Assembly: GCA_963769885.1 (NCBI GenBank)
Contig: CAVYNH010000006.1
Span: forward strand, 96,001-160,000
Reading direction: 5' to 3'
Origin: Methanobacteriota archaeon
GTDB taxonomy: Archaea; Thermoplasmatota; E2; DHVEG-1
Length of the DNA stretch: 64,000 nucleotides
Under the pieces are notes generated by a model. That model was not told the DNA's origin, made no database searches, and saw nothing but the letters and a program-made list of their open reading frames with translations. Below, piece after piece: positions 36,436 through 49,901 of the stretch. The first letter of the stretch is position 1. The number at the start of each line of letters is the position of its first letter. Made by a program: the position numbers and the translations under genes.

Positions 36436-36516
36436 ATTCTCCCTATAAAAGAATCCAAGGCAACGCATAAATGCTTTGCGGACAAGGTATAAAAGCCAGG
36501 GAGAAAAGAAAGAGAG

Positions 36517-36668
36517 TAGCGGGGAATGGATTTGAACCATTGATCTACGGGTTATGGGCCCGTCGGGATTTCCTGACTACCCTACCCTTCTAGGCAGGAC
36601 CAAAGAATCAGTCTCCGAATCCTACTCGCTATGGAGGGCAGCCGCGGTGTTCTCCTTTCTGGACCGCT
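36517..36668 (-). tRNA. tRNA-iMet (CAT), interrupted by 77 nt (36588-36664) in the acceptor stem
   Basis: Joined sequence AGCG|GGGTAGGGTAGTCAGGAAATCCCGACGGGCCCATAACCCGTAGATCAATGGTTCAAATCCATTCCCCGCTA gives a perfect 7-bp acceptor stem with A1:U72, three G:C pairs in the anticodon stem and a TTCAAAT T-loop. Confidence 0.85.
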
Positions 36669-36696
36669 ACTGACTCGATGGGGAATATCTTCATCG

Positions 36697-36704
36697 TACT
36701 TAAA
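36697..36704 (-). promoter_or_regulatory. TATA box for the tRNA-iMet precursor
   Basis: TTTAAGTA on the minus strand, ending 28 nt upstream of the AGCG 5' segment. Confidence 0.55.
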
Positions 36705-37053: not shown

Positions 37054-37169
37054 GCAGGGGTACCCGAGCTTGGTCCAAGGGGCAGGGCTTAGGAGCAACC
37101 GCAACACCAACTGTGGGCGAAGAGACCCTGTTGCGTAGGCACTCGAGCGTTCAAATCGCTCCCCCTGCA
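37054..37169 (+). tRNA. tRNA-Leu (TAG) with a 31-nt intron at 37/38 (37094-37124)
   Basis: GCAGGGG/CCCCTGC acceptor with A73, CAGGG-CT TAG G^A-CCCTG anticodon arm, long variable arm, GAGCG TTCAAAT CGCTC T-arm. Confidence 0.9.
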
Positions 37170-37263
37170 CTCCAATCCTTTCTTTTCAAGGCGTAAAGAC
37201 CACACAAGAACCTTTAATAAACCATCACTCTCTTTCCTGCTGAAAAAGAGGGACGAAGCAGCC

Positions 37264-48828: not shown

Positions 48829-49509
48829 ATGCGGGGACAAAAGAAAATAACTATCATCATCGCCATGCTCCTCCTCACCACCACGCCACTCGGCTATCTC
48901 TTCCTCGCCCAACGCGACCAAGCCACACCCGCTCTGCCGCAAACCCTGGAAACCATCACGACCACGGACGACACCCAAATCTATACCAAGGACCTGATCA
49001 GCGCCGGACCGCTGGAGGGCTACAGCCCGCTCACCGTCAGCTTCTACGGCAACCCCGACAACGACACCTGCATCACCTCGTACCACTGGGACTTCGGCCC
49101 CCAAGGCGCAGGCATCATCCAATCCGACATCTACACCCAGCTCACCCAACGACCCATCAGACTCCAACGACTCATCTCCATCATCGCCATTGCATCAGGC
49201 ATCGGCATCGGAACCGCCAGTCCACCCCTCGCCTTTGGGGCCATCGCCGCCTGCATGATCGCCCTGCTTCTCGTCTCGGTAAAAATGGAGGCACAGACCA
49301 GACTCCATTACAGCTTCCAATCAGACGACCGCGGCACCAGCATGGTCTTCCTCTACCCCGGCTCCTACTCCGCGACCCTCACCGTCACCGACGCCCAGGG
49401 CCACACAGCCCAGGACACCGTCTGGGTCATGGCCCTCAAATACCCACCCAACCCCCCGCCAGACTACGACACCCACTACCTACTGCATCAGATATCGAGA
49501 AGGACCTGA
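48829..49509 (+). CDS. Membrane protein with a PKD domain interrupted by a hydrophobic hairpin
   Basis: GYSPLTVSF...SYHWDFG, then an insert, then PGSYSATLTVTDAQG. Confidence 0.7.
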   Translation: MRGQKKITIIIAMLLLTTTPLGYLFLAQRDQATPALPQTLETITTTDDTQIYTKDLISAGPLEGYSPLTVSFYGNPDNDTCITSYHWDFGPQGAGIIQSDIYTQLTQRPIRLQRLISIIAIASGIGIGTASPPLAFGAIAACMIALLLVSVKMEAQTRLHYSFQSDDRGTSMVFLYPGSYSATLTVTDAQGHTAQDTVWVMALKYPPNPPPDYDTHYLLHQISRRT

Positions 49510-49901
49510 ACCCAGTACGGCGGCTGGTTGTGGACCTCGAGCATATGGTAGGTCACGGCCTTGACCTCCGTCCCCATCCGATACTTCTTCACGTCGTACT
49601 CGTCGCCGTAGACCGTCGCCGACAGCGCGGTCCCCGTTATTTTGACGTCGAACCGCCCGAACACCAGGTTCCGCGCCCCGTTTAAGAACACCAGCTCCGA
49701 CAGCCAATCCACCAACAGCTGCTCCAGCGACGGCGCCGCAGGAAGCGATACCGGAATCTTCAGCACCGGACGGATCTCAGAGTCATCCGTTATGATGTCG
49801 AACATCCCCTTCGCCACATGCGCGAACGCCTCATCGAGCGTCCGGCCGAACGCCCGGATGCCGACATCCGCGGTATGATTAATGAGCTCGTACTCCTTCA
49901 T
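49488..49901 (-). CDS. Archease
   Basis: YELINHTADVGIRAFG, EVKAVTYH, terminal LLDI. Confidence 0.93.
   Translation of the reverse strand: MKEYELINHTADVGIRAFGRTLDEAFAHVAKGMFDIITDDSEIRPVLKIPVSLPAAPSLEQLLVDWLSELVFLNGARNLVFGRFDVKITGTALSATVYGDEYDVKKYRMGTEVKAVTYHMLEVHNQPPYWVQVLLDI

Follow-up and report, generated by a model that had tools for sequence, protein, structure and literature searches.

A leader-assembled splicing motif and a very probable 39-nt acceptor-stem intron in the sole initiator tRNA gene of a sediment Thermoplasmatota archaeon

The only initiator tRNA gene that we found in the genome of a Methanobacteriota archaeon (Thermoplasmatota; E2; DHVEG-1) is very probably interrupted between nucleotides 4 and 5 of its acceptor stem by a 39-nt, protein-spliced intron, whose splicing motif is built with the help of the 5′ leader. 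The gene was found on contig CAVYNH010000006.1 of assembly GCA_963769885.1, of which we analyzed positions 96,001-160,000 (a stretch of 64,000 nt, hereafter the window, whose numbering is used throughout unless a genome and contig are named). A tRNA-Met(CAU) is called there at 36591-36517 on the minus strand, both by the Rfam tRNA model (49.2 bits) and by ARAGORN. Read contiguously, its acceptor stem is AGAAGGG/CCCCGCU and contains two non-pairs, A3·G70 and A4·C69. These mismatches had already been noted in the initial annotation, as had the initiator identity of the tRNA, and both observations hold: A1:U72, the G29-31:C39-41 pairs and the anticodon CAU, set in the arm GGG CCCAUAA CCC, are all in place. 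The spliced product would likewise carry every mark by which archaeal initiator tRNAs are recognized, namely A1:U72, three G:C pairs at 29-31:39-41 and CAU.

Most of the mature tRNA is encoded by the second exon (initiator nt 5-73; 36517-36587, minus strand), which is covered by the Rfam and ARAGORN calls, has the anticodon loop CCCAUAA, does not encode CCA and is 87-99% identical to the initiator tRNAs of relatives. It is followed by a T/C-rich trailer (36500-36516, minus strand), which we read from the sequence as a likely terminator tract; T-rich trailers are also found in relatives. On the upstream side, a TATA box, TTTAAGTA (36697-36704, minus strand), would serve as the promoter of the pre-tRNA. 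It is unchanged in 33 of 33 intron-bearing loci that were aligned and also occurs in most intronless relatives, and transcription would be expected to start about 25 nt past it, near 36679-36676. Around this predicted start lies a promoter-proximal motif, ATATTCCCC (ATTATTCCC in relatives; 36680-36688, minus strand), which forms a conserved alignment block and is also found in intronless relatives. Since independent DNA contigs from two metagenome studies span the arrangement (X1, identical over 36443-36638, and X2, covering 36492-36692 with 7 differences), it is not the misassembly that the initial annotation had considered. Two RNA runs, X19 and X20, examined as assembled contigs, match the tRNA body only, through contigs from relatives, one of them intronless with its own leader and the other intron-containing; neither a spliced joint nor a circular intron was seen in them.

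The host genome amounts to 2.09 Mb in 7 contigs, is 92% complete and gives 45 Rfam tRNA matches, three of which are CAU tRNAs. In the other two CAU tRNAs, the acceptor stem is of the G1:C72 type and the GGG/CCC anticodon stem is missing, and a BLAST search of the host genome with the tRNA body as the query returned a single copy. Only one initiator-like tRNA is therefore present in the assembled genome, a point on which the initial annotation had made its reading depend. When the initiator loci of the family were searched, no second full initiator gene was found in any intron-bearing genome, and thus splicing must work. Counted against this explanation is that the missing 8% could, in the host genome taken alone, hold a second initiator gene. 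For the second CAU tRNA (C4:138424-138546), a reading with two introns was dropped, as it is better described by one intron of ~46 nt at 37/38, with a U·U in the stem.

Three further observations concern initiator tRNA genes in general. Several relatives have additional, partial copies that comprise nt 19-71 only (G122:C81:10278-10330, G069:C43:5878-5931, G120:C169:3427-3477 and G065:C50:13385-13437) and look like att-type duplicates from elements integrated into the 3′ part of the initiator gene. The idea that the intron protects against integrating elements draws no support from these copies, which lie away from the intron, and was rejected. In two genomes of other families, the initiator body is found in two pieces (approximately nt 5-40 and 40-75 of the query) that are ~30-40 nt apart (G030:C83:7791-7902 and G039:C71:2040-2143), which suggests that their initiator tRNA has an intron at the canonical site. 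Finally, the anticodon arm GGG-CCCAUAA-CCC (36560-36548, minus strand) contains C33, which is shared by all family members and by two other sampled families of the order (L031-L060); in three other families of the class, the initiator tRNA has U33 (GGGCUCAUAACCC), the usual nucleotide. C33 characterizes the cytoplasmic initiators of vertebrates and is uncommon among archaea.

The bulge-helix-bulge motif and its conservation

Two AGCG tetranucleotides are located upstream of G5, a proximal one at 36630-36627, at a distance of 39 nt, and a distal one at 36668-36665, at a distance of 77 nt. In our reading the proximal AGCG is the 5′ exon (tRNA nt 1-4; 36627-36630, minus strand), which would be cut after G36627, and the 39 nt that separate it from G5 are the intron (36588-36626, minus strand), which sits at tRNA position 4/5 and would be cut after 36588. 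The central helix (H) of the bulge-helix-bulge (BHB) motif joins the leader dinucleotide AU (36632-36631), A1 and G2 on its 5′ strand to CUAG (36593-36590) on its 3′ strand. It is bordered by bulge 1, consisting of C3, G4 and A36626 (CG^A, where A36626 is intron nucleotide 1), and bulge 2, consisting of A36589, A36588 and G36587 (AA^G). The intron ends form a hairpin, h′, in which 36625-36618 pair with 36601-36594. The outer helix, h, is formed by the leader strand GGCUGCCCUCC (36633-36643, minus strand), which pairs with tRNA nt 6-17 (36586-36575, with U8 bulged) in folds as well as in pair counts. The arrangement is that of an archaeal BHB motif, with two 3-nt bulges on opposite strands, a 4-bp helix between them and both cuts after the second bulge nucleotide. 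Joining 36627 to 36587 would yield AGCGGGG/CCCCGCU, with seven Watson-Crick pairs, so that the perfect 7-bp stem foreseen in the initial annotation is obtained with the proximal AGCG. The joined AGCGGGG is also the contiguous sequence of intronless relatives (AGCGGGG or AGCGAGG; 49 family genomes).

Two details of the motif set this genome and its one congener apart. The outer H pair is A·G in both and A-U in the other intron-bearing genomes, and an unusual A9 pairs with leader U(-5) in this genome, the corresponding pair being G·U in the congener. Local folds of this genome and of three relatives contain two flanking helices around a 7×7 internal loop, and both splice sites fall within this loop. 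For this genome, the conformer to which the three H pairs of the BHB are added lies 2.2 kcal/mol above the local minimum free energy (MFE) structure; it is usual for such motifs to lie above the minimum, and the enzyme stabilizes them. We also counted against our explanation that the outer helix can be drawn in two registers, only one of which gives exact 3-nt bulges; the slip is possible because the strands are G-rich and C-rich. A C/D box small RNA inside the intron was considered and dropped, given that no conserved boxes were found and that the hairpin stem alone is conserved. With the other introns read from ARAGORN output, the one at 4/5 looks like the sole non-canonical intron of this genome.

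The family to which this archaeon belongs consists of Thermoplasmatota sediment MAGs and is represented by 108 genomes, 93 of which have a detectable initiator body. The intron is present in 40 of these 93 (18 of 40 genera), 49 are confirmed to be intronless and four are cut by a contig end. Among 40 relatives, many have a contiguous AGCGGGG gene and several have A(U/G)AAGGG, with CAUAGCG^A invariant 35-43 nt before it. The pattern ATAGCGR-N20-50-AAGGGTRGGGTAG was found in 35 of the 108 family genomes and its reversed control in none, and the remaining initiator loci supplied five further variants, with AC^G, AU^G or AC^A as the second bulge. The exon and its boundary, AUAGCG^A, are unchanged in 40 of 40 intron-bearing genomes, and hBHBh′ is strict in the 38 of them that lie outside this genus, with AUAG/CUAU as the central helix. 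A stricter pattern, scanned against species across GTDB, gave 33 matches, all of them Thermoplasmatota/Thermoplasmata MAGs from sediments and wetlands, including Thermoplasmatales archaeon SG8-52-3.

Evolutionary support for the two flanking helices comes from several directions. In an alignment of 33 sequences, 87.6% of the hBHBh′ cells are paired, compared to 35-50% after a shift of the partners by 1-3 columns. Both sides have changed in ten pairs, eight of which belong to h′ (eight of its nine pairs), and the observed covariation score was reached by 0 of 500 shuffles. H itself is paired in 98.5%, and helix h, which connects the leader with exon 2, in 90.6% over 33 loci, including an AU/GC swap at -12:16. 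Anchored pair counts, which were made separately, agree and recover H and h′, and RNAalifold, run without a hint, returned H, the first h′ pairs and the leader:exon-2 helix, the last with its register slipped by one. Covariation among orthologs, which the initial annotation had pointed to as informative, thus speaks for the structure that contains the proximal exon. As for the history of the intron, both states occur in four genera (g8, g18, g39 and g49), and in one of these the intronless alleles lack exactly the intron and have a colinear leader. Because four genera hold both states and the leaders of intronless alleles have decayed (see below), the sequences suggest that an ancestor of much of the family carried the intron and that precise losses then occurred repeatedly.

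These comparisons also bear on whether the locus could be a decaying or disrupted tRNA gene, either a pseudogene or an insertion leftover, with the functional initiator gene hidden in the unassembled 8%. The completeness of 92% leaves room for such a gene and the A·G in H leaves the BHB slightly degraded, but the same architecture is the sole initiator gene in 40 genomes from 18 genera, including genomes that are 94-97% complete. Moreover, the body shares 87-99% identity with relatives that look functional, and compensatory changes are seen in the structure. We therefore regard decay as very improbable.

We give even less credence to the reading of the initial annotation, which takes the distal AGCG (36668-36665) as the 5′ exon and has an intron of 77 nt removed via a relaxed BHB (GUAG-CG^g with CUAG-AA^G). 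Much of what this proposal described is present in the sequence: the distal AGCG does lie 77 nt upstream of G5, shortly past the TATA box and just past the inferred transcription start, its use would, in this genome, lead to an identical mature sequence, and the alternative pairings suggested for the insert can be formed. However, the central helix of that motif has a G·G mismatch, an h′ helix is lacking and the motif is not conserved. In most relatives, the distal element is GGCGGGG, GGCGGUGG or similar, and would produce G1·U72 in place of the initiator A1:U72. It varies in distance and in sequence and has no BHB; at the proximal site, by contrast, all 40 genomes have AUAGCG^A, which forms part of a BHB that covaries. 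In addition, the only EndA of this genome is of the α′2 type, which is reported not to cut relaxed motifs (PMC5829648). What stands of the earlier proposal is the idea of a 4-nt 5′ exon AGCG and of an acceptor-stem intron at the 4/5 site; the exon, by contrast, has to be reassigned to the proximal AGCG (36630-36627), which shortens the intron from 77 to 39 nt, and only this AGCG sits in a conserved, covarying hBHBh′. Given a near-canonical hBHBh′, the need for a relaxed endonuclease disappears as well.

Splicing enzymes and the proposed processing pathway

Excision of the 39-nt intron requires an encoded splicing endonuclease and an RtcB ligase, and both were found. EndA is encoded at a single locus (C7, minus strand). 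Counted from an internal Met, the protein has 344 aa and contains one PF01974 (catalytic) and two PF02778 (N-terminal-type) domains, and its best PDB match is the dimeric A. fulgidus enzyme 1r0v (E 6.5e-35; residues 66-334 aligned). The architecture of the endonuclease, singled out for inspection in the initial annotation, is at the sequence level that of a single α′2-type enzyme, with a length within ~300-350 aa, two N-type domains and one catalytic domain, and no second EndA gene. The EndA open frame (L096:1474-3177, minus strand, corresponding to G000:C7:530092-531795) extends 223 codons upstream of the likely start MDATGDL...; this Pro/His/Arg-rich, low-complexity stretch is probably not coding and would inflate an automatic EndA gene call to 567 aa. 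RtcB (589 bits) and Archease (131 bits) are also present, and the gene of the latter, the activator of RtcB, lies within the window at 49491-49892 (minus strand), 13 kb from the intron-bearing initiator gene.

EndA enzymes of the α′2 type are reported to be restricted to canonical BHB motifs (PMC4033280, PMC5829648), which fits a strict motif that has been moved to a new place and not a relaxed one. Set against this reported need for a canonical BHB, the A·G in H of this genome and its congener was counted against our explanation. A tRNA-Leu(UAG) gene in the window (37054-37170, plus strand), which is detected only in the intron mode of ARAGORN and missed by the Rfam gathering scan, has a 31-nt intron at 37/38, and the central helix of its BHB, CUUA/GAAG, contains an A·G mismatch, too. 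Because the two central helices share this mismatch, EndA may tolerate A·G in H at two loci, those of the initiator tRNA and of tRNA-Leu.

The idea that we consider least probable, also raised in the initial annotation, is that no splicing occurs: the contiguous AGAAGGG tRNA would be transcribed, and a Thg1-like enzyme would repair its 5′ end by template-dependent 3′-5′ addition, comparable to the 5′ tRNA editing of amoebal mitochondria. The mismatches are indeed restricted to nt 3-4 here and to nt 2-4 in relatives (AUAAGGG), the very region that such editing repairs. However, a search of the 92%-complete genome gave no match to the Thg1 family (PF04446), although Methanosarcina acetivorans, the control, did match, and repair would leave unexplained the invariant AGCG exon, the covarying BHB hairpin and the leader complementarity, which are kept with the insert and lost without it.

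For the intron at 4/5, we propose the following pathway. Transcription from past the TTTAAGTA box would produce a leader of ~49 nt. The leader strand 36643-36633 would then pair with tRNA nt 6-17, leader AU and A1G2 would pair with CUAG at the 3′ end of the intron, and the intron ends would form their hairpin. The BHB assembled in this way would place each splice site in an exposed bulge of 3 nt (CG^A and AA^G); the single α′2-type EndA would cut both bulges, and RtcB with Archease would join leader-AGCG to GGGU.... Until splicing, AGUAGCGG (GGCGGGG in most relatives) would probably hold the unpaired 3′ acceptor strand. After joining, the true acceptor stem would form and RNase P would then remove the leader. 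Since the true acceptor stem would form only after joining, splicing would precede the trimming of the 5′ end.

A spare acceptor strand in the leader

The distal AGCG belongs to a leader element, AGUAGCGG (36664-36671, minus strand), that resembles a spare copy of the 5′ acceptor strand. In the MFE fold of a 163-nt precursor, 36671-36664 are paired with the tRNA 3′ end, CCGCUACU (36522-36515). A G-rich element is found in all intron-bearing leaders, 7-30 nt upstream of the h-strand, and is complementary to the 3′ acceptor strand CCCCGCU. While it reads AGUAGCGG in this genome, its sequence is usually (A/U)GGCGGGG and sometimes AUAGCGGGG or GGCGGUGG. Since the element mostly begins with G, which would give G1·U72, it is not an exon.

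This complementarity is confined to intron-bearing loci. Over 38 distinct intron-bearing loci, the best duplex between the upstream segment and the 3′ strand has a mean energy of -14.6 kcal/mol (z -3.3 versus shuffles), compared to -4.8 kcal/mol (z -0.3) for 53 intronless leaders. In a genus with both states, the GGCGG element and the C-rich h-strand have both decayed in the intronless alleles, in the G5:C68 as well as in the A5:U68 sub-lineage, which argues that the two leader elements persist only as long as the intron does. Across the family, the 3′ acceptor strand varies at one position only, C68/U68, where the change is tolerated as a G·U wobble. With a strand this close to invariant, the pairing is backed by complementarity and co-occurrence and not by compensatory change, a point that we also counted against our explanation.

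Judging from these sequence comparisons, the spare strand is probably a placeholder for the 5′ acceptor strand. It is tempting to go further and to speculate that the element (GGCGGGG; AGUAGCGG here) is a required cis-acting placeholder, which holds the tRNA 3′ strand in an acceptor-like helix while the BHB is built from the true 5′ strand, and which hands the 3′ strand over after ligation; we put this forward as a tentative proposal, which we think possible but somewhat more likely wrong than right. If it is true, the supply of initiator tRNA would depend on an ordered pathway of splicing and then RNase P. A placeholder of this kind may also shield the 3′ end or take part in its maturation, and guard against misfolding. 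No paper describing such a leader element was found in a limited full-text search of the literature.

Two other ideas about this region did not hold up. As an anti-BHB switch acting on the leader h-strand, the spare strand gives duplex energies no better than those of shuffles (z -0.7), and the nucleotides before it show, by eye, no consistent pattern of covariation with the discriminator or the trailer. In the intronless leaders L035, L036, L049, L132 and L137, we also observed GGCUACC or CUACC ~10-20 nt before A1. This sequence is complementary to tRNA nt 12-16 (GGUAG) and represents either a remnant of the h-strand from the time of the intron or a separate leader feature.

Relation to known introns and implications

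Acceptor-stem introns are rare in archaeal tRNAs but known; in a literature search of incomplete coverage, we found no paper on an intron at 4/5 in a Thermoplasmatota initiator tRNA, and none on a leader with a spare acceptor strand. The nearest case in terms of position is that of the Thermoproteales, whose tRNAs contain non-canonical BHB introns, with 3/4 as the acceptor-stem extreme (Sugahara et al. 2008, cited in PMC4090602). Like those 3/4 introns, the present one would interrupt the 5′ side of the acceptor stem near its end and be spliced by proteins via a BHB, and in both cases a motif at this location has to draw on sequence that lies beyond the mature tRNA. Unlike them, it sits at 4/5 and in an initiator tRNA. 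The host and its enzyme differ as well, Thermoplasmatota with an α′2 EndA as opposed to Thermoproteota with an (αβ)2 EndA, and the motif is a strict hBHBh′, whereas the non-canonical motifs of the Thermoproteales are relaxed. The conserved spare acceptor strand in the leader is another feature that distinguishes it from the Thermoproteales introns.

Regarding the motif, the closest relatives are the canonical 37/38 hBHBh′ introns of Euryarchaeota (α4/α′2; A. fulgidus EndA, PDB 1r0v/2gjw), which share its geometry, with a central helix of 4 bp between two bulges of 3 nt and a helix on either flank; the EndA of our archaeon also has the same architecture as the A. fulgidus-type euryarchaeal enzyme. 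In contrast to these introns, the one described here is located in the acceptor stem and not in the anticodon loop, and its outer helix is formed by leader and exon and not by the anticodon stem. With an outer helix of this composition, the D arm and the acceptor stem cannot form before splicing. According to a review, Euryarchaeota with α4 or α′2 enzymes carry introns at the canonical site only (PMC4090602). Leader-built BHBs, on the other hand, are known from split and permuted tRNA genes in Nanoarchaeum, Caldivirga, Thermofilum and Cyanidioschyzon, where leader and trailer form the motif by pairing (PMC4033280, PMC3218864). There as here, a non-tRNA flank provides one strand of the motif, and splicing comes before end maturation, as we propose for the initiator tRNA, but in the present gene everything is in cis on one transcript, the halves are in normal order and the 5′ exon has only 4 nt.

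For annotation, the consequence is that Rfam and ARAGORN, when scanning contiguously, return a tRNA whose acceptor stem is defective and are liable to miscall the gene. tRNAscan-SE 2.0 looks for such introns by extending its candidates by 60 nt (PMC8450103), and thus standard annotation may already list the initiator intron.

In reviews, odd intron positions go together with the broad-specificity enzymes of Crenarchaeota and DPANN, and α4/α′2 archaea are described as having anticodon-adjacent introns only. A sediment family of Thermoplasmatota with an α′2 enzyme, in which the sole, essential initiator tRNA has an acceptor-stem intron spliced via a leader-built strict motif, would be a counter-case, indicating that what limits the position of an intron is the possibility of assembling a canonical motif and not the enzyme type alone. 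An intron at this site would also force the order of processing, with splicing before RNase P. Lastly, the close relatives with and without the intron offer a natural series in which to follow precise intron loss and the coevolution of the helper elements in the leader.
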